Shown: positions 371 to 9,328, counted from the first letter of the stretch. The stretch is 9,328 nt of DNA from a virus (IMGVR_UViG_2751185961_000008), one strand, 5' to 3'. Notes: generated by a model from the letters alone, not told the origin. Numbers and translations are program-made.

Positions 371-949
371 TTAGCCGTTAAGTTTAACTGCCAGACCTGC
401 GACATATTCCCCTTGATAACGAGCAATAGACAGTTCTTCCTGGCTGGGCTGGCGTGAACCGTCACCGCCTGCGATGGTGGTTGCGCCGTACGGCGTACCG
501 CCGCGAACCTGTGAAACGTCAAATAATTCCTGCGCTGCGTAGCCAATGGGGACAATCACCATGCCGTGATGCGCAAGGGTCGTCCAGGTGGATGTGATGG
601 TTTGTTCCTGACCGCCGCCAGTACCGGTGGAACTAAAGACGCTCGCCAGTTTTCCGTATAGTGCGCCGGAAGCCCACAGGCCGCCCGTCTGGTCGAGGAA
701 GGTACGCATTTGACCGGACATGTTACCAAAGCGGGTAGGTGTACCAAAAATAATGGCGTCGTAATCGGCCAGTTCTTGCGGGGTTGCAACCGGTGCAGTT
801 TGCGTTTTACCGCCTGCTTTTTCAAATAATTGCGGCGGCATGGTTTCCGGTACACGCTTAACGACAACTTCTGCGCCATCCACTTTGCTTGCACCCTCAG
901 CAACTGCGCGTGCCATCGTTTCAACATGTCTAAGGATATGCTTTATCAT
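371..949 (-). CDS. wrbA: wrbA (NAD(P)H:quinone oxidoreductase, flavodoxin-like), 5' end replaced by prophage DNA; hybrid ORF, probably non-functional
   Basis: From about residue 9 onward ([33 protein letters not shown]...[13 protein letters not shown]) the ORF matches WrbA. The first 8 codons (MIKHILRH) replace the native N-terminus MAKVLVLYYSMYGHI, so the first beta-strand and FMN phosphate-binding loop and the native promoter are missing. The hybrid ATG overlaps the integrase stop codon. Confidence 0.8.
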
Positions 950-950
950 T
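905..950. other. attL prophage-host junction (att core) within the 5' end of wrbA; approximate
   Basis: WrbA-matching sequence ends and phage-derived sequence begins in the interval around 915-930 (native ...GHIETMARAV versus observed ...[10 protein letters not shown]). The integrase 3' end directly abuts or overlaps this point. Exact core boundaries need attR or attB for comparison. Confidence 0.5.
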
Positions 951-2256
951 TTGAAAAATATAATTTTATTTCATCCTCCTGGTCACTTTGGGGCACGTCT
1001 GGGGCACGGGCATTAAGGACATTATTCAGCATAGCAACCTGAGTCACGCTGCACTCAGGCATCCATGCACCATAAACATTGTAGACCATGCTGGCGCTGG
1101 AGTGCCCCATCTGTGATGCAATAAATGTCGGGTTTGCTCCGGCAGATAAAGCCCAGCACGCATAAGTATGGCGTGACTGATATGCTTTCCGGGCTCTTAT
1201 ACCCGCTCTTTTCATTGCTGAGTCCCATGTTGCCCCGATGGAGCTTACCGCATAGTTAATACCCGCCTTGTGATTCTTGCGAACGATTTGCGGACAGAAA
1301 ACAAAAGTGCACTCGTGCAAAATTGTTCTTCCGTACTCGCGTAATTTAACGGTGATCTGATGCTGCCTGCCAAGACGAGTAAGCATCGCCTGGTTTTTAA
1401 GTGCTTCAATGGCTGGTGCCAGAAGATGTATAACCCGGTCGGTGCCAGCATCAGTCTTTGGTAGCGTAAAATCACCTATTTTTGTAAAATTTCTTCGCAC
1501 TGTTATCGTGCCAACTTTCAGGTCGATATCCTCCCATGCAAGTGCGGCAATTTCACCATGTCGCATCCCCGTAAAAACAGCCACTGTCCAGAGGTTTTTG
1601 GTCTGTTGATGATGACAGGCATCAATGAGGCGACCAAACTCCTCTCTGGTCAGTGGATCCGGCACAGGTTTTGATTTCCTCAGTGGTGTTATTGAATTAA
1701 ACGGGTTTTTCTCCAGATACCCGTTTTCAGCGGCAAAGCTGAACATCCCGGCAGTTGTTGTCATGTAATAGTTTACCGTGGGGACTGTTCTTCCTTTGTT
1801 GGTGGAAGTGTTTTTCCTGCTTTCCTTTTCCCCAGTCAGTAAATCTTTCCTGATGAACAGCAAATCCTCTTTTGTAATCGAGGATGCCAGTCTACCCACG
1901 CCAAGCCTCGGTAGCATATTTTTCATCACTGATTGATAACGATTTAAGGCGTTACTACTGATTTCCATTGCTTTCAGAGTAAGCCATTTCTGTGCCAGTT
2001 CACCGACGGTGATATCTTTTTTTACCAGGCCAAATAGCTTCAGGTTAGGTGAGTCAGGGAATCGCTCGGCATAATCAAACGTTCCTGTTCTGATTGCAAA
2101 GCAGACCGAAGCCCTTAACTCACCAGCGATCTTTCTGTTTTTCGGTGTATCGGGCACGCGAAGATTTTCGCGCACTCGTTTACCCCTGTACTTAAACGTT
2201 ATTCGGAGTTTTCCTCCGTGATTTTCAACGCCGGCTGGATAGGCTGAATTCGCCAT
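946..2256 (-). CDS. int: phage integrase, tyrosine recombinase family (436 aa from the ATG at 2256; ORF-track alternative GTG start at 2280)
   Basis: Long ORF adjacent to the att junction. C-terminal catalytic region shows the tyrosine-recombinase pattern ([15 protein letters not shown] ... [35 protein letters not shown]). AGGAGG sits 4 nt upstream of the ATG at 2256, so this start is preferred over the upstream GTG. Confidence 0.9.
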
Positions 2257-2308
2257 TGTTCCTCCTGCGTCCAAGAGCACGCTCAGGTTATACTCTTATG
2301 GACAAGAA

Positions 2309-2593
2309 TTAAACATCCTGAGATGGTAAGGGTTGGTTTTTAATCCAGGTGTTGATGGTAGGAAGATGATAGAGACATTCGCTGTTTTTCTTTGGCGTTC
2401 CGTCGGGGGCGATTTGTTTATATTCTCTGCCGTTCATCCACGCAGCGTCCCTGGCGCGTAATATGGTTCCTTTTCTCAGGCCTGTTACAGCTATTAAAAG
2501 CTCCAGTGTTACCCATTCATTCGCATTTATCTGTACAACAGGTGTGATGACTGGTTGAATGCCATGGCTATGTTGGTTTACGAACTCGCGCAT
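2309..2593 (-). CDS. xis: excisionase-like protein (94 aa), putative Xis
   Basis: Small ORF immediately upstream of int on the same strand, with a GGAGG Shine-Dalgarno 6 nt before the ATG. The motif EWVTLELLIAVTGLRKGTILRARDAAWMNGREY resembles the excisionase-like family found next to prophage integrases. Family assignment is from memory, not a search. Confidence 0.6.
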   Translation of the reverse strand: MREFVNQHSHGIQPVITPVVQINANEWVTLELLIAVTGLRKGTILRARDAAWMNGREYKQIAPDGTPKKNSECLYHLPTINTWIKNQPLPSQDV

Positions 2594-2612
2594 AAGTTAC
2601 CTCCGCATATGT

Positions 2613-2637
2613 AAGAAAAAACCGCCCGAAGGCGGTT
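2613..2637 (-). terminator. rho-independent terminator for leftward transcription (UUCG tetraloop hairpin plus U-tract)
   Basis: Minus-strand RNA reads AACCGCC-UUCG-GGCGGUU followed by UUUUCUU. It lies directly after the stop of ORF 2639..2899 and before xis. The plus strand has an A-run before the hairpin and no T-run after it, so it is unidirectional. Confidence 0.65.
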
Positions 2638-2638
2638 G

Positions 2639-2899
2639 TCAGTTGATTGATGTGCGGCGCATTTTTCGAAGGCTGGCAATATGCTTTTCCTTCTCAATTT
2701 CCGCTTTAATCATATGTAGTTCGTTGTGATCGATTCGCTCAAATTCTGCATTAAATGAGTTAATTGATGCGGCTCTGGTTCTCCCATCCAGCCTTCGGAA
2801 GATCACCTGTGTCAGCGTTACCTTGCAGACTTGAACCGGATAGTTGTTGGCGTCGACGAAGGACTGCCCGCGCTGGATCAGAACGAACACAGGTAGCAT
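2639..2899 (-). CDS. hypothetical small protein downstream of exo (86 aa; possibly shorter from the GTG at 2890)
   Basis: ORF in the same orientation as the Red genes, 38 bp after the exo stop and ending 2 bp before the terminator hairpin. The SD-like AAGGA is adjacent to the ATG, which is suboptimal spacing; the GTG three codons downstream has better spacing. No recognisable domain. Confidence 0.45.
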   Translation of the reverse strand: MLPVFVLIQRGQSFVDANNYPVQVCKVTLTQVIFRRLDGRTRAASINSFNAEFERIDHNELHMIKAEIEKEKHIASLRKMRRTSIN

Positions 2900-2937
2900 T
2901 CCTTAACTGTCATATCATTTGCACCTCGTTGCTACGG

Positions 2938-3618
2938 CTATCGCCATTGCTCCCCAAATACAAAACCAATTTCAGCCAGTGCCTCGTCCATTTTTTCGAT
3001 GAACTCCGGTACCATTTCGTCAAAAACCTCCATGTATTTTTCATCCCGTTCGACCACGACATAATGCAGGCCTTCACGCTTCATACGCGGGTCATAGTTG
3101 GCAAAGTACCAGGCATCTTTTCGCGTCACCCACATGCTGTACTGCACCTGGGCCATGTAAGCCGACTTTATGGCCTCGAAACCACCGAGCCGGAATTTCA
3201 TGAAATCCCGGGAGGTAAACGGGCATTTCAGTTCAAGGCCGTTGCCGTCACTGCATAAACCATCGGGAGAGCAGGCGGTGCGCATACTTTCGTCGCGATA
3301 GATGATCGGGGATTCAGTAACATTCACGCCGGAAGTGAACTCAAAGAGGGCTCTGGCGTCGTTCTCGTACTGTTTTCCCCAGGCCAGCGCTTTAGCGTTA
3401 ACTTCCGGAGCCACACCGGTGCAAACCTCAGCCAGCAGGGTGTGGAAGTAGGACATTTTCATGTCAGGCCATTTCTTTCCTGAGCGGGGTTTTGCTATCA
3501 CGTTGTGAACTTCTGAAGCGGTGATGACGCCGAGCCGTAATTTGTGCCACGCATCATCCCCCTGTTCGACAGCTCTCACGTCGATCCCTGTACGTTGCAG
3601 GATAATGTCCGGTGTCAT
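2938..3618 (-). CDS. exo: lambda-type Red exonuclease (Exo / Red-alpha), 226 aa
   Basis: Protein [65 protein letters not shown]...FVFGEQWR is near-identical over its full length to my recollection of phage lambda Exo. The start overlaps the bet stop (ATGA), as in lambda. Confidence 0.95.
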
Positions 3619-4400
3619 GCTGCTACCTTCTGCTCTGTGACTTTCTGTTTCAGGAATCCAAGAACCTTCACAGCTTCAGCCTGTGTTAGTTCTGAAGATG
3701 TGTAAATGTTGCGGCGAAAAATCCGGGAACAGAGCGGCAACAGGTCGTCATCCCACGTTTTTTCCATGGAAGTAAGAAGGGCGTTAATTTCCGACATGGT
3801 TTCTTCGTTAACCGGGGTGATGTCGCGTTCCGGCTGACGTTCTGTAGTATATGCAGTATTTTCGACAATACGCTCGGCTTCATCCTTGTCATAGATGCCA
3901 GCAAATCCGAAGGCCAGGCGAGCACACTGAATCATGGCTTTGTGCCGTAACATCCGTTTGGGATGCGACTGCCACGGTCCGGTGATTTCTCTGCCTTCGC
4001 GGGTTTTGAATGGTGCGCGGCGACATTCATCCATCCACTCGGTAACGCAGATCGGGTGATTGCGATCTTTGCGGTAAATCCGGCATGTACAGGACTCATT
4101 GTCCTGCTCAAAGTCCATGCCATCAAACTGCTGGTTTTCATTGATAATGCGGGACCAGCCATCAACGCCAACCACCGGAACGATGCCGTTCTGCTTGTCA
4201 GGGAAGGCGTAAATTTCTTTCGTCCAGGGATTAAGGCCGTACTGGTTGGCGACGATCAACAATGCGATAAATTGCGCATCGCTGGCATCACCTTTAAATG
4301 CCGTCTGGCGAAGAGTGGTGATTAGTTCCTGTGGGTCGACAGAATCCATGCCGACACGTTCAGCCAGCTTCCCTGCCAGCGTTGCGAGTGCTGTACTCAT
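3615..4400 (-). CDS. bet: lambda-type Red single-strand annealing protein (Bet / Red-beta), 261 aa
   Basis: Protein [100 protein letters not shown]... matches lambda Bet in length and sequence. Gene order gam-bet-exo is conserved. Confidence 0.95.
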
Positions 4401-4405
4401 CCGTT

Positions 4406-4702
4406 TTATACCTCTGAATCAATATTAATTTGGTGACGGGCGATGGTTTCAGCCATGTAGCGGATGTGTTCTGCCATGCGTTCCTGAAAATCGACATCGT
4501 CATCAAATGCACGGGAAATAGCTTTTTTGCTGGCCCCGTGACGTTGCAGATTATCGATGCATAGCGATTCAAACAGGTGTTGGGGCAGACCTTTTTCCAG
4601 GTCGTCTGCCAGCTCAGCTTCAGTTTCTTCACGGGCAATTTGCTGGTAGTGTCGTGCCCATGACTGCTCTTCAATGCGATCGGGGATAAGCCAGGCATTC
4701 AT
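4406..4702 (-). CDS. gam: Gam, RecBCD inhibitor, short (GamS-length, 98 aa) form
   Basis: Protein [98 protein letters not shown] matches the C-terminal 98 residues of lambda Gam. The start codon overlaps the stop of the upstream 690-aa gene. No in-frame N-terminal extension equivalent to the 138-aa GamL is available. Confidence 0.9.
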
Positions 4703-6771
4703 GATTTATCACCTCCGAAATTTTCAAGCCTGTTGGCAATCATGATGGCGATATCAGGGATTGCTGGCGCTGTGGCTATACATGCGGGGTTGGCGCACAA
4801 ACCATAGACGGCGGCAATCACGAGCTGTCTTTTCCAGTCGAGAGTTACTGGCTCAGAATTGGCGTCATCGCCGGACGTATCACTGCCTGGCTCGTTCTGA
4901 ACAACGGTTTCGCCCTCCTGAGCGGCATCAACAGAGTTTTCCTGAATGATCTTCTCCTCAGTTTGTGCTGAGTCTTCTCCATCAGCGGCGTCATTTTCTC
5001 CAAAAGTTTCTGTGTAAGTGCTATCGCCCATTACCGCACTACAGTCAGGGCAGTTACCCCCGCCAGTCTGACCACAGACGCGGCAGTTTTTTTCCAGCTC
5101 CGGTTGCGCTACTGGCCCTGGCTGTTGCTCTTCTGGCCCGTTTTGTTGCGTATCCGGGCTGTTTTGTCCCGCTTCTGGGGCAATTTGTTCCACTTTGGAC
5201 TGATTCTGGTCCTCAGTGTCGCGAGTCTGGATCCCCTTCACCCACTTCGGATCAGCAGGGTTACTGATGCCTTCAACGAATTCTCCACGCGAGGCAGCCA
5301 GTAATTTGTCGGCATCGACTGGATTTTTTGGGGGGATGTTTTCCCTGGCTTTATTGAGTTCCTCCCTCAGTTCCTGGTATTTCGTTTCTACAGATGAGAC
5401 ATTTTCCAGTGATTGCGTGTCCTCATTATGTTTAACTGGAATTTCTTCCACTGATTCAGGCGCTGCCTGTTCATTAGCCATTGTGTCCGATGCTTGTTGC
5501 TTTTCTTCATCGCCATGTTTTCCTTCTGCTGTTCCGCGCTGCGGCATCGGTGCTGATGAGCGACCGCAGGCAATTTCCACGATTTCCGGATCCGGGTTAG
5601 CGTGATCGGTTTCGGTCAACACTTTGTTGAGATATTCAGTCACGCGTGCCGGGATGGCCTCAATGCCGATTGGTGCATCTTTCACGGAAGCCACCACAAT
5701 GGCGCGGGAATAATCCAGCCCACCGGGCATGGCGATAAATTTGTCGCGAAAAACAGAAAAGGGCGGCTTATTCTCTGACACGATTTCTTCAACGCGTTTT
5801 GCGTGTGCTGGGTGCAGGTTATAAATATCCACATCCATTGAACGGGCCAGAACGCCGGTGGCTACATCTCGTGCGAGTGATGTCTTATCATGTTTGAATC
5901 CTTCACCACGATCGGTAATATTTCCGCCGCCAGCGTTAGCACCGGAAGGCGTACGGGTAATGCCTGAAACATAATTTCCGTTCTGCCATTCTTTTGTCAG
6001 CAGGCCCTGATCAAGGTAGTCAGTTTTCATCCAGGTGGAAATGAACTTGTCGAATTCAGCCGGGCTGATGCGATGATTTGCAGAGTGGGGGAATGCTTTC
6101 CCTACAGATTCAGTCAGGCGACTAAGGTGATAGTTCGTCAGTTTATCCAGTTCATGATGCGCGGCGCGCACAGCAGTAAGCAGGCTCTGAAGGTAACTGT
6201 CCTCTGTGTCCATCTCCATACGGATCACGTTATTGCGTTGTTCTGGTGTGGCATGATGCCGGTATTTTCCATCTTCATCTTTGCTGAATAAGAAGAGGTG
6301 AAGGAAGCGATGAGTAAGGCTCAGAGTGGCGACGGGAATTTCACACTCAGAACAGTCATCGTCGCTGTCCGGGGATTCGCTTTTCTCCACATCATCCGGA
6401 ATAGTTCCGTCCAGGTTATCGTTGTCATCGCCAGCAGTTGTGGCATCTTCACCGTTGATGTTGTCATCGAAGGGGATAGCCATCATGGTGATGCCATCGT
6501 TACCGCCTTTTTCATAGCGGTTGCAGAATTCAGTATCAAACACGCCTTCCGGTGGAAGGTCATTCACGACGGGGAAATTTACGCGAACGGGTTTTTTGAA
6601 ATCATCCTCGTCGTAGCCTGCATCGTCCATGGCTGCAATGCAGCGGGAAACTGCGACAGAAAGTTTTCTGGCCTCGGTCCAGAAAAAACCGCCTTTGATG
6701 CCAAGGCGTTTTCTGACTTTATCGTTTTTTGCTTCGCAGTGTAGTGCAAAAGTCTGTTTATCAGCGCTCAT
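4699..6771 (-). CDS. large (690 aa) highly acidic hypothetical protein with a CxxC-x(n)-CxxC zinc-ribbon-like motif; function unknown
   Basis: Uninterrupted 2073-nt ORF in pL-operon orientation, translationally coupled to gam. It contains long Asp/Glu-rich low-complexity stretches (for example [43 protein letters not shown]; [49 protein letters not shown]) and the motif [16 protein letters not shown]. All plus-strand ORFs inside it are in alternate frames. Confidence 0.8.
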
Positions 6772-6844
6772 TGTATTTAAACCTCTGGCTGGATTAGAAT
6801 TAGCGGCCCTTTGTCTGATTTCTCCGAATACGGTGACGCAGGGA

Positions 6845-6873
6845 GAAATCCGGTAGCCTGCGCTGCCGGATTT
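6845..6873 (-). terminator. possible hairpin terminator or RNA processing element between ORF 6879..7265 and the 690-aa gene; weak
   Basis: Inverted repeat AAATCCGG / CCGGATTT with a 12-nt loop, just downstream (leftward) of the stop of ORF 6879..7265. The flanking U-tract is better on the plus strand than on the minus strand, so function and direction are uncertain. Confidence 0.3.
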
Positions 6874-6878
6874 TTATT

Positions 6879-7265
6879 TCAGTGGAAGGTTGCCTGGTTT
6901 GCTGTTTTGTGAGTTGTTTTTCCCTTTTCGTGCTGGCATTCAGGGCAGTCGCACTCAGAATTTTCTCTTGCAAACTCAAGAGCCTGTGCAAGTGTATGGA
7001 TTTGTTGTACTCCAATGTTGCTTCTGACAACTTCACGTGCAGCATGAATATATGGGCTTGGTGTTTTGCCATTTAACCCACATAAAACAAAACGACTGTC
7101 CTTATATTCGTTATTTCCAACTTCTGTAAGCACTGAAAAAGAAAATACAAAGTCGATTTTGTATTCTTTGCATATTTTACTGATGCGTTCTGCAATTTCT
7201 TTGAGTTCATTTATTGCATCAGGACTGGTTTCGGAAAATATTTCATTTTGCGCAAGTTCTTTCAT
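6879..7265 (-). CDS. hypothetical protein (128 aa) with C-terminal Cys cluster (CDCPEC); AT-rich accessory gene
   Basis: ORF in strongly AT-rich DNA, MKELAQNEIFSETSPDAINELKEIAERISKICKEYKIDFVFSFSVLTEVGNNEYKDSRFVLCGLNGKTPSPYIHAAREVV...ENSECDCPECQHEKGKTTHKTANQATFH. No confident homology recalled. Weak SD (GGAAA about 9 nt upstream). Confidence 0.5.
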   Translation of the reverse strand: MKELAQNEIFSETSPDAINELKEIAERISKICKEYKIDFVFSFSVLTEVGNNEYKDSRFVLCGLNGKTPSPYIHAAREVVRSNIGVQQIHTLAQALEFARENSECDCPECQHEKGKTTHKTANQATFH

Positions 7266-7348
7266 TTTGATTTTTCCGTGATTGATAATTAATGCGGTTT
7301 TATTTCGGCTTGTCTGTTACAGATATGGAAGGTGTATTTTATTACTCG

Positions 7349-7570
7349 TCACAACGACGCTGCTTTTACGGGTAAGCCATCGCGCCCGATGAAAACTTTA
7401 ATCATGCAGTCGGTAATGCATGTTTTTGTTGTGAAGTTACGAATATAGAGTTTTCTCTTTTCAATATTGTTTGCTGAAGCGATATATGTCCGACCTTCAT
7501 GAAGAACATAATCGCCAGGCGTCACGCACTGACGTGGTATTTCATCAGTTCCGAAGTGATGAGCAATCAT
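7349..7570 (-). CDS. hypothetical small protein (73 aa from the ATG at 7570; ORF-track GTG start at 7588)
   Basis: [76 protein letters not shown], with GGAG 6 nt upstream of the ATG at 7570. The upstream GTG and ATG lack an SD. Function unknown. Confidence 0.45.
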
Positions 7571-7744
7571 AATTATCTCCATTTTCACAAATGAACTTTG
7601 TTGATGCGGTGCCTGGTGCCTCCAGGTGACGTTAACCAGTTAACAACTAACGCCGGGTCAGGGGACGATGACTTTCCGTGACATCCTGTCGGTTTAACTG
7701 TTCCGCGTGCGCATAGCCGCATTCACCGCATCACAAAATTCACT

Positions 7745-7787
7745 TTAAAAAGGGCGGACATCAGCAATCGGCAAACCGATGTCCGCC
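7745..7787 (-). terminator. rho-independent terminator for leftward transcription inside the 440-bp non-coding spacer
   Basis: Perfect 10-bp inverted repeat GGCGGACATC ... GATGTCCGCC with a 15-nt loop. On the minus strand it is followed by CUUUUUAAAG; on the plus strand there is no T-tract after the stem. Confidence 0.55.
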
Positions 7788-8026
7788 AAGGGCTACACAC
7801 AGCAATGTTGTTATTCACAACCGGAAGCGCACGGTCGAAGAAATCTAACGACAAGCCTTCAATGGGAAAGAGTCTTCGCCGTGCACTTTCGTGTTGTACC
7901 CTGGCTTTCAGGGTAATGTCTGTTCAGTAAACTGAGAGTGCCGGAACTTACCCGTGTCCGGCGCACGATCTCCACCTCACCCGTGGAGAACTCCTCAACT
8001 ACAAACCCCGTAAGGAGAGTGAATTT

Positions 8027-8236
8027 ATGACACAAGAAGAAAAAGTGATGTTTCTGATGCGGCTGGCTGTCGATACCTACAACACACAATTCAGGGAGAA
8101 AGATATACCTCAAAAGGCAGTTCCTGCCGCGGTAGATAAGGGCGGTGCTATTGCCGTATTTTACGATGCATTTGAATCATTTTTTAATGAAAAACTCGAC
8201 GCTGTTAGCGGCTTCGGAACATCGAGTAATAAATAA
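8027..8236 (+). CDS. hypothetical small protein (69 aa) encoded opposite to the surrounding pL-direction genes
   Basis: ORF MTQEEKVMFLMRLAVDTYNTQFREKDIPQKAVPAAVDKGGAIAVFYDAFESFFNEKLDAVSGFGTSSNK, with a strong SD (TAAGGAGAG) about 8 nt upstream of the ATG. It is preceded by about 440 bp without convincing ORFs. Its 3' end overlaps the 3' end of the convergent ORF 8205..8564 by 32 nt. Confidence 0.55.
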   Translation: MTQEEKVMFLMRLAVDTYNTQFREKDIPQKAVPAAVDKGGAIAVFYDAFESFFNEKLDAVSGFGTSSNK

Positions 8237-8564
8237 CGTTCATTACGGTTCTTAAACAACAATCAGTGGGCTTGATGTTGTTCTTTTCAAGCTCACTTGC
8301 CATCACTTCCATTATTCTTGCACTTACACGAATTATTTGGTGGCTGTAAGCGATGCAACTGTCGCTGATATTGCTGTTTATTTCTATTACTTCATTTTCA
8401 CCATTAGCATCAACTTCGGATGCGCTGTTTTCATTATCCTGTTTCAGTGCTTTTTCTGCCATCTGGATGCGTGTCAGCGTTGCGGAATTTGGGCTAAGTC
8501 GATAAACCTGTCTGGCATCTTCCAGAAGCAGGGCGATAATGTGCTTCAGTTCTGTTTCGTTCAT
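8205..8564 (-). CDS. hypothetical protein (119 aa from the ATG at 8564; ORF-track start at 8585 is probably TTG)
   Basis: ORF MNETELKHIIALLLEDARQVYRLSPNSATLTRIQMAEKALKQDNENSASEVDANGENEVIEINSNISDSCIAYSHQIIRVSARIMEVMASELEKNN..., with GGAG 6 nt upstream of the ATG. It lies 31 bp downstream of ORF 8596..8844 on the same strand, consistent with a two-gene operon. Confidence 0.5.
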   Translation of the reverse strand: MNETELKHIIALLLEDARQVYRLSPNSATLTRIQMAEKALKQDNENSASEVDANGENEVIEINSNISDSCIAYSHQIIRVSARIMEVMASELEKNNIKPTDCCLRTVMNVIYYSMFRSR

Positions 8565-8595
8565 AGTTAACTCCGGTAGTTGCAATTTATTAATA

Positions 8596-8844
8596 TCAGG
8601 CGGTCAGCTCTTTAAGCTTCTGAACTGCTTTATTCATTTCATCCATACAGTCGATGAATTCGTCCAGTTTAAGCTGCATTTTTCCGGCGGCCTGAAGAAT
8701 TTCAAGTTTTAAGGGCGCAAGTTTTTTGTTGAATGCATCATCTTCCTGGCGTTTTTTCTCCGCAATTTCGGCGGCTTTCAGCAATTCTTCAGCCTGTTTT
8801 CTGAGTATTTCTGGTGAAGGTGAAACTGCTTTGAGGTTATTCAT
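8596..8844 (-). CDS. hypothetical helical protein (82 aa from the ATG at 8844; ORF-track ATG at 8901 gives 101 aa); possibly the 3' part of a gene interrupted by IS1
   Basis: ORF MNNLKAVSPSPEILRKQAEELLKAAEIAEKKRQEDDAFNKKLAPLKLEILQAAGKMQLKLDEFIDCMDEMNKAVQKLKELTA, with GGAA 6 nt before the ATG at 8844. The same frame stays open upstream through 8902-8997 with no start codon, up to the insB stop codon inside IS1. Confidence 0.5.
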   Translation of the reverse strand: MNNLKAVSPSPEILRKQAEELLKAAEIAEKKRQEDDAFNKKLAPLKLEILQAAGKMQLKLDEFIDCMDEMNKAVQKLKELTA

Positions 8845-8982
8845 TTCAGGTTCCTGTTGTTGCAGAATTAATTTGTTGCATTCTCTGCGTGAGCGTTTCA
8901 TTGCAGATTCGCACTTCTTGCAATAAATGGCTCTCCCGTCACGCTTGCTGGCATCTGAATAAAAATCATTGACTGATTTTGT

Positions 8983-9328
8983 GGTAATGACTCCAACTTA
9001 CTGATAGTGTTTTATGTTCAGATAATGCCCGATGACCTTGTCATGCAGCTCCACCGATTTTGAGAACGACAGTGACTTCCGTCCCAGCCTTGCCAGATGT
9101 TGTCTCAGATTCAGATTATGTCGCTCAATGCGCTGAGTGTAACGCTTGCTGATAACGTGCAGCTTTCCCTTCAGGCGTGATTCATACAGCGGCCAGCCAT
9201 CCGTCATCCATACCACGACCTCAAAGGCCGACAGCAGGCTCAGAAGACGCTCCAGTGTGGCCAGAGTGCGTTCACCGAAGACGTGCGCCACAACAGTCCT
9301 CCGTATCCTGTCATACGCGTAAAACAGC
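8983..9328 (-). mobile_element. IS1 family insertion sequence, divergent variant, partial (right-end terminal repeat at 8983; element continues beyond window end)
   Basis: Sequence from 8983 (GGTAATGACTCCAACTTACTGATAGTGTTTTATGTTCAGATAATGCCCGATGAC...) matches the reverse complement of the IS1 right terminus and insB region as recalled, with scattered substitutions (roughly 10 percent by eye). The terminus lies 15 nt beyond the insB stop, as in IS1. Confidence 0.9.
8998..9328 (-). CDS. insB: IS1 transposase InsB reading frame (C-terminal part; frame continues open to window end)
   Basis: Translation ...[109 protein letters not shown] matches IS1 InsB with a few substitutions. The ORF-track start at 9291 is an internal GTG, not the real start. 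Confidence 0.85.

Follow-up and report, generated by a model that had tools for sequence, protein, structure and literature searches.

A probable Rac-type kil region in an IS1-interrupted early-left operon of a mosaic lambdoid prophage

A kil gene, its structured leader and a KilS-type small RNA

We analyzed a 9,328-nucleotide (nt) stretch of viral DNA (IMGVR_UViG_2751185961_000008, hereafter the window), and in particular the block at positions 6772–8982, which lies between a RecE-family gene and an IS1 element (Table 1). An earlier note, made from the sequence, had described this block as an AT-rich accessory island of five unassignable small open reading frames (ORFs) of 128, 73, 69, 119 and 82 amino acids (aa). 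The first four of these ORFs are present, but the 73-aa ORF can be assigned to the KilR family and the '82-aa' ORF is the IS1-truncated part of a 237-aa gene. We consider it highly probable that the block, which IS1 has cut, comes from a mosaic lambdoid prophage, where it forms the part of the early-left (pL) operon distal to the promoter, with a kil region of the Rac type.

Table 1. Features of the window, with positions counted from its first nucleotide
Feature	Position	Strand	Basis or context
wrbA	371–949	−	
Tyrosine integrase	946–2280	−	
DUF1233 excisionase	2309–2593	−	
exo, bet, gam	2938–4702	−	
RecE-family protein, 690 aa	4699–6771	−	
Block under study	6772–8982		Between RecE-family gene and IS1
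128-aa protein (phrog_2016)	6879–7265	−	PHROG, full length; position of ydaE/racC in Rac
kil, Rac KilR-family FtsZ/cell-division inhibitor, 73 aa	7349–7570	−	NCBIfam, PHROG
Structured kil leader (5' untranslated region)	7571–7746	−	Alignments, fold, consensus of 47 copies
KilS-type small RNA, ~89 nt	7747–7835	−	Homology to K-12 Rac kilS (b4833)
Conserved non-coding region upstream of the small RNA	7836–8010	−	Alignment with dicB-type loci and K-12 Qin
69-aa gene (phrog_2605)	8027–8236	+	PHROG, full length; homologues; codon analysis
119-aa protein (phrog_2982)	8205–8564	−	PHROG; GGAG ribosome-binding site
3' fragment (last 128 codons) of 237-aa gene (phrog_2539)	8596–8982	−	Open frame, alignment, PHROG
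IS1 right end	8983–9328	−	Terminal inverted repeat and C-terminal part of transposase (ORF 8998–9291)

The 73-aa product matched the NCBIfam family NF008465 ('FtsZ inhibitor protein') over residues 1–72 of 73 with 154.9 bits, well above the curated cutoff of 92, and matched phrog_294 Kil (8e-36). The gene carries a kil annotation in RefSeq and phage records, and homologous loci carry the precomputed annotation PF27398 KilR. Judged by sequence, the ORF is thus KilR, the Rac-type FtsZ inhibitor, and does not belong among the unassignable ones. KilR of Rac is unrelated in sequence to lambda Kil, yet it also targets FtsZ, as well as MreB (PMC12482147), its expression making cells filament (PMC12482147, PMC5793797), and kilR is silenced via NusG and Rho, with read-through inducing its expression (PMC5793797).

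Upstream of kil and its leader, the segment that we list as a KilS-type small RNA (sRNA) differs from kilS of K-12 Rac by three substitutions and one indel in the 42-nt stretch that precedes the hairpin. It comprises a single-stranded seed region (…AACAUUGCUGUGUGUAGCCCUU), a 13-bp GC-rich terminator hairpin (7753–7787, minus strand) and five U residues at 7747–7751, and a distance of ~176 nt separates its 3' end from the kil ATG, just as it does in Rac. The homology includes the 5' region, the predicted fold (−35.3 kcal/mol, z = −3.2 relative to shuffled sequences) ends in a 3' Rho-independent terminator, and phage phiSTEC1589 carries a compensatory C-G to U-A change in the terminator stem. 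By homology, the segment is a KilS ortholog, and the internal terminator that the earlier note had rightly pointed out is the terminator of this RNA. A simple hairpin scanner skipped it, as its loop exceeds 8 nt. In K-12, Hfq RIL-seq data led to the prediction of KilS, Northern blotting confirmed it, and a transcription start of its own was assigned to it (PMC8175672). DicF is made by termination and RNase III/E processing of a polycistronic RNA (PMC10448788). Two other identities were tried and rejected, namely membership of the DicF family, given a sub-threshold Rfam score and a different seed, and identity with the STnc100/Pas sRNAs, for which the score was likewise sub-threshold, the structural resemblance weak and the genomic position that of the late (Q) region. 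Indeed, PasD, which is grouped with STnc100, lies near the late-gene regulator Q and not in the early-left operon (10.64898/2026.05.13.724894).

The 456 nt between the ATG codons of kil and of the 69-aa gene hold no ORF, in agreement with the untranslated spacer described previously, but they form a conserved non-coding module with an sRNA rather than filler. The 176 nt from the terminator to the kil ATG share ~90% identity with the corresponding spacers of Rac (kilS-kilR) and Qin (dicF-dicB), and their minimum free energy is −65.8 kcal/mol (z = −3.9 relative to shuffled sequences). In the consensus of 47 non-redundant copies, a near-perfect closing helix of ~25 bp (~7724–7751 with ~7582–7612) pairs the sequence just after the KilS U-run with that just before the kil ribosome-binding site (RBS) and encloses inner hairpins; Rac and the spacer between dicF and dicB in Qin retain this helix. 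Among the copies, the helix has many one-sided changes that remain compatible with wobble pairing and few that break it; an inner hairpin has two compensatory pairs. The length of the helix suggests that it could be a substrate of RNase III. GTTAAC occurs twice in the leader as a direct repeat (GTTAACTGGTTAAC), and a CCUGG-AGGCA-CCAGG hairpin there is invariant.

The conservation extends upstream of the sRNA to about position 8010; in Qin, the homologous sequence precedes dicF (precursor region). On the plus strand, this region presumably holds the promoter and 5' untranslated region of the 69-aa gene; a scan of 7836–8010 for promoters with at least 9 of 12 consensus matches found none on either strand. 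The hairpin scanner found here a 7-bp hairpin at 7897–7915 (UACCCUG-AAAGC-CAGGGUA, minus strand), which is kept in dicB-type loci and in K-12 Qin. Its first ten bases resemble the lambda boxB stem-loop.

Across prophages (the window, comparison loci L005–L007 and L013–L015, and viral contigs), one hairpin-and-leader chassis was seen with at least four seed types: a DicF type, a KilS type, a third type (…CCATGTTGATTACC…) that occurs with DicB, and the type of phage 75/02 Stx (…CCATGTATCAATATCC…), which occurs with Kil. Seed and inhibitor were closely paired, KilS seeds occurring with Kil in 26 of 27 cases and DicF seeds with DicB in 54 of 55, with rare recombinants. A literature search, which was not exhaustive, found no description of this seed-swapping relationship.

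The block is an alternative form of the region between gam and N

The locus closely follows the Rac prophage of K-12, where the order is racR-ydaG-ydaF-(sieB, opposite strand)-kilS-kilR-ydaE-racC-recE and the annotated kilS lies ~176 nt upstream of kilR. Both loci have small early genes with one gene on the opposite strand, an sRNA with its terminator, a leader of ~180 nt, kilR, further small genes and a recE-type gene. Furthermore, both have a Kil of the same family, almost the same KilS seed and hairpin, and leaders with about 90% identity. They differ in the flanking genes, as the window has the 128-aa gene in place of ydaE/racC, the 119- and 237-aa genes in place of ydaF/ydaG, and the 69-aa gene in place of sieB. 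Pairwise comparison showed no similarity of the 128-aa protein to YdaE, and the 69-aa protein did not align with SieB of Rac. Rac is under control of the RacR/DicA type, whereas the operon of the window is of the N-dependent (lambda/Stx) type; moreover, the recE-like gene of the window lacks the nuclease domain and is followed by lambda-type gam-bet-exo, and the region is cut by IS1.

The Qin prophage (ydfABC-dicF-dicB) has, like the window, a non-coding region conserved upstream, a terminator hairpin (GGCGG…CCGCC) and then the same leader ahead of the division-inhibitor gene, with the sRNA 3' end about 180 nt from the inhibitor start codon. The seed is a different one and the inhibitor is DicB there but Kil here, and DicF-type loci carry an additional ~90 nt upstream of the seed. 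In the lambda type, represented by phage 933W, the region likewise lies between gam and N in the pL operon, and it too contains, at a corresponding site, a small killer gene that targets FtsZ. Protein homology is absent, however, with no match to CIII, Ea10 or Ral in the window, and according to the 933W annotation this type has no KilS/DicF-like sRNA module. When the five ORFs were compared with lambda N, CIII, Ea10/Ssb, Ral, Kil and SieB through Pfam (E ≤ 0.1), none matched, which bears out the earlier impression that they do not resemble these proteins.

In the wrbA phage 933W, whose int module is closely related, the interval from gam to N is occupied by lambda-type kil, cIII and ssb/ea10 and one hypothetical gene. 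The block fills this same interval, as had been proposed from the position of cIII, ea10, ral and sieB in lambda, and hence represents an allelic alternative rather than inserted DNA. A near-identical block lies between N and a RecE-family gene in UPEC-245U, in the O104:H4 strain 2011C-3493 and in phage PhiR5_2, which makes it part of the early-left operon and not something inserted into it. The intact order is pL - N - 237-aa - 119-aa - (69-aa, other strand) - non-coding module - kil - 128-aa - recE-like - gam - bet - exo - xis - int, and this complete arrangement occurs in functional phages. Four of the five ORFs of the block are co-oriented with the pL operon, embedded between N and recE/gam. 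As a whole, the block thus lacks what defines a moron, namely being an inserted unit separate from the operon structure of the phage.

The full 2,211-nt block was found at 99–99.9% identity in E. coli chromosomes, at 98.9% in O104:H4 strains, at 99.0% in phage PhiR5_2 and at 96% in phiSTEC1589-Stx1c, and the Shigella phages 75/02 Stx and POCJ13 carry it at 91% over 81% of its length. At least 80% of the block is present in about 80 of 5,426 complete E. coli genomes, and some part of it in 4,620. Among phage records, the widely shared piece is kil with the surroundings of its leader. The KilS-type sRNA and the leader were unannotated in all RefSeq and phage records that we inspected outside K-12. 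Directly downstream of kil, phiSTEC1589 (L008, 3075–3248, 174 nt, annotated 'Rtr1/RPAP2 family') and Rac phages (ydaE) have an extra small coding sequence (CDS), and the window has at this place a bare 83-nt intergenic gap (7266–7348, 32.5% GC).

IS1 has truncated the 237-aa gene

The frame of the '82-aa' ORF is open all the way to the IS1 end, and identity with an uninterrupted copy stops exactly at 8982/8983. The fragment covers positions 106–229 of 229 of the phrog_2539 profile, and an intact 237-aa CDS lies immediately downstream of N in three comparison loci (L001, at 8828–9538, L003 and L010). The IS1 boundary is thus as previously described, with IS1 starting exactly at 8983. The element, whose transcription runs parallel to that of the block, matched the transposase family DDE_Tnp_IS1 (PF03400; 5.9e-51) over profile positions 35–131 of 131. 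The breakpoint adjoins GGTAATGACTCCAAC…, which corresponds to the IS1 right inverted repeat. These data show that IS1 destroyed the 237-aa gene and cut the block off from N and pL. The exact junction was found in none of 185,579 species representatives and in no complete E. coli genome, so that the insertion is a private and probably recent event; that the surviving ORFs are intact and nearly identical to those of an inducible phage also makes it look recent.

IS1 inserted between the two CxxC pairs of a central Zn-ribbon of the 237-aa protein. By PHROG comparison, this ribbon shows similarity to Lar-like restriction alleviation proteins (2.6e-9) and to the N-terminus of endonuclease VII. Lambda has ral at the position held here by the 237-aa gene, just downstream of N. 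A PDB sequence search with the intact 237-aa protein returned nothing significant.

An optional gene on the opposite strand

The 69-aa protein matched phrog_2605 over its full length (2.8e-44). Its gene has the strong RBS that had been noticed before (AAGGAG, 8 nt before the ATG) and, as also described, converges with the 119-aa gene in a 32-nt overlap (8205–8236). In homologues at 57% and 44% identity, the ORF remains open at similar length. Codons 1–16 showed 4–5 synonymous and 0–1 non-synonymous changes, a ratio of non-synonymous to synonymous change (pN/pS) of about 0.05, which means that the constraint acts on the protein and not merely on the DNA; the N-terminus of the family is invariant (MTQEEKVMFLMRLAV). 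This codon evidence marks the ORF as a genuine gene.

The gene occupies the same opposite-strand slot beside Kil-type and DicB-type modules alike. In a sample of viral contigs it was present in 6 of 24 KilS-Kil modules, in 3 of 7 modules with the third seed type and DicB, and in none of 54 DicF-DicB modules; it is also absent from 75/02 Stx. The slot holds unrelated genes elsewhere, sieB in K-12 Rac and rac10 in Rac-SA53, to the latter of which the 69-aa protein showed no pairwise similarity. The slot next to the sRNA hence appears to be a recurrent site of optional genes. With this variable presence, the 69-aa gene is the one part of the block that looks like a moron. Although it sits where K-12 Rac has sieB, SieB (of Rac, lambda and P22) is 162 aa long, compared with 69 aa here. 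The AlphaFold2 (AF2) model of the 69-aa protein, built on a 7-sequence alignment, is a low-confidence helical hairpin, predicted to be soluble (pLDDT 62, pTM 0.30). Among 5.8 billion proteins the family comprises 15 clusters, whose source-named members are all from E. coli. A scan found no promoter-like site with at least 9 of 12 matches upstream of the gene and no terminator downstream of it.

A probably repressed kil module cut off from its promoter

Repressor, terminator and Rho/NusG explain how kilR is controlled in Rac and dicB in Qin. By analogy, in a lysogen with the intact operon, the repressor would keep pL off and stray transcription would stop at the KilS terminator or through Rho/NusG; ending before kil, it would leave the toxic Kil unmade. 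The short KilS RNA could accumulate under these conditions and act in trans via Hfq. Upon induction, N-modified polymerase would pass the KilS terminator, the long helix being a plausible RNase III site at which the sRNA might be separated from the kil mRNA, and Kil would then block FtsZ (in Rac also MreB) and cause the cell to filament. The 128-, 119- and 237-aa proteins would be co-transcribed accessory early proteins, and the 69-aa gene a separate, optional unit on the opposite strand. In the window, only transcription running on from IS1 could enter the block from upstream, and in the absence of N it should stop at the KilS terminator. With N and pL cut off and such transcription expected to end there, the block is probably an orphaned, largely silent remnant whose sequence is intact.

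Several points weigh against a Rac-type kil region in a severed pL operon. The locus is known here from its sequence alone, the window ends inside IS1, and its junction is found in no database genome. Four of the five protein products are without an assigned function, which leaves part of the block unexplained. Homology alone places the 5' end and promoter of KilS; a consensus promoter scan found none for it, and only a weak −10-like TAGATT, without a good −35, aligns with the −10 region of Rac. Neither Rfam model that responded reached its cutoff: DicF (RF00039) scored 29.5 bits (E = 0.003; cutoff 48) on the sRNA, where the hairpin alone matches and the seed differs, and STnc100 (RF02076) scored 31 bits (E = 9e-4; cutoff 47) on the leader. 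Lastly, the covariation in the leader is mostly one-sided and the variation limited, so that it supports the helix as compatible without proving it, and the copies were gathered with an exact 18-mer from one hairpin, which is therefore invariant by construction.

One alternative, which we regard as possible but unlikely, is that the block behind IS1 is dead, that is, unexpressed, unselected and decaying prophage DNA. IS1 did remove the link to pL and N and did destroy one gene, and its junction is private and probably recent. However, the remaining ORFs are intact, the block retains 99.9% identity to other genomes and 99.0% to the inducible PhiR5_2, and there is no visible decay. In addition, KilS has its own transcription start in Rac (PMC8175672), and some expression of the independent 69-aa gene could persist.

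A further reading, on which we place little weight, concerns the 69-aa family, which might be a new lysogen-expressed factor tied to modules of an sRNA and a division inhibitor, with the locus serving as a seed-swapping sRNA platform. Superinfection exclusion or modulation of Kil/DicB would be possible roles of the protein. For lysogen-expressed cargo the slot offers positional support, no more, and for the 69-aa gene alone.

The proposal of the earlier note itself, a moron or defense island of lysogen-expressed cargo (superinfection exclusion, anti-phage functions) regulated apart from the early operon, seems quite improbable. The AT-rich shift on which it drew is real, as the block is the lowest-GC 2.2-kb stretch of the window (42.8% GC, compared with 49.4% for prophage positions 946–6771) and its five ORFs carry the shift (38.5–42.3% GC; GC at third codon positions 0.30–0.44), but it is patchy, the central non-coding part (7571–8026) having 47–53.5% GC. 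The gene content is mosaic among related phages, and the 69-aa gene, optional and with its own RBS on the opposite strand at the sieB position of Rac, is moron-like. Moreover, DicB, a functional analogue, is reported to protect against phage infection (PMC6832061), a precedent by which Kil-type modules could have side effects on exclusion. The block is thus accessory and mosaic, but as a whole it is not an independently regulated island: four of its five ORFs run with the pL operon, the 69-aa protein is not similar to SieB, the promoter scan gave no promoter for its gene, and the terminator and spacer, which had been offered as signs of independent regulation, are elements familiar from Rac and Qin, namely the KilS sRNA and the leader of kil. 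No PADLOC model matched any protein of the block at a sensible threshold, the search of PADLOC-DB v2 yielding two chance-level matches (E = 0.014 and 0.043). The earlier note had named as evidence against the island that all five ORFs be known lambdoid early proteins and that the GC shift be absent; this is not what we found, yet one of the ORFs belongs to Kil, a protein on its list.

A toxin-antitoxin system, with Kil as toxin and either KilS (type I/III-like) or the 69-aa protein as antidote, is very improbable, even though Kil is toxic, membership of KilR in such a system is still called uncertain (PMC12482147) and the 69-aa family occurs beside both Kil-type and DicB-type inhibitors, as KilS is sense-oriented upstream of kil and not antisense, the 69-aa gene is missing from 18 of 24 KilS-Kil and from all 54 DicF-DicB modules and so is no obligatory antidote, and repressor, terminator and Rho/NusG account for the control of kilR and dicB. 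An antisense action of KilS on kil was rejected, since the duplex energy between the KilS seed and the kil start was no better than that of shuffled sequences (77% of 1000 shuffles were equal or better), leaving no pairing signal.

What could tempt one to call a defense island is therefore a routine and precedented prophage module without priority as a new defense system. It is of a known kind, a kil region of the Rac type that has a KilS-type sRNA and the leader shared by DicF and KilS, in a mosaic wrbA prophage. Two aspects are nonetheless worth recording. The families phrog_2016, phrog_2605, phrog_2982 and phrog_2539 are E. coli-restricted and without assigned function in the early-left operon of widespread pathogen prophages, and the KilS-type sRNA with its leader is a gap in annotation, even though the block occurs in O104:H4 strains and the module in Shigella Stx phages.

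Other proteins of the block and make-up of the window

The 128-aa protein matched phrog_2016 over its full length (2.2e-78). Of the cysteine cluster noted earlier, C32, C107 and C110 are invariant in the family alignment, together with H74 and H128, but C105 is variable. The family comprises 26 clusters among the 5.8 billion proteins, all source-named members coming from E. coli, with identities down to 59%. Searches of Pfam, NCBIfam, PADLOC and PDB gave no significant match, and the AF2 model (14 sequences) was unusable at pLDDT 48; neither this model nor that of the 69-aa protein was good enough for fold searches. The 119-aa protein matched phrog_2982 over its full length (5e-77) and occurs in only eight phage records (Escherichia, Shigella and a partial match in Cronobacter). 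It had nothing above threshold in Pfam, NCBIfam or PADLOC and, by pairwise comparison, is unrelated to rac11, its positional counterpart in Rac-SA53. For the 69-aa and 237-aa proteins, matches in these three databases were at chance level only.

The window is a mosaic with a junction at ~2600–2620. Positions 1–2616, with int/xis of the wrbA type, match wrbA-integrated Stx phages, and positions 2617–8982 match prophages with a different integrase, among them that of UPEC-245U, which, where seen with its flank, adjoins ynfG; the O104:H4 prophage that matches the block has the same integrase as the UPEC-245U prophage. No complete E. coli genome joins the two parts, coverage of the window is at most 68% in each of them, and no database genome holds the whole window.

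The recombination genes look like a hybrid of a Rac and a lambda module. The 690-aa protein corresponds to roughly the N-terminal 600 residues of RecE (NF007259 positions 1–598 of 877, with 742 bits, short of the 1269 cutoff) and has no counterpart to the model past position 598, where the RecE nuclease domain lies; its gene is directly upstream of a complete lambda-type gam-bet-exo set. Finally, the start of the wrbA ORF beside the integrase presumably replaces the native N-terminus of the K-12 protein, and such a replacement would fit integration of the prophage inside the 5' end of wrbA.

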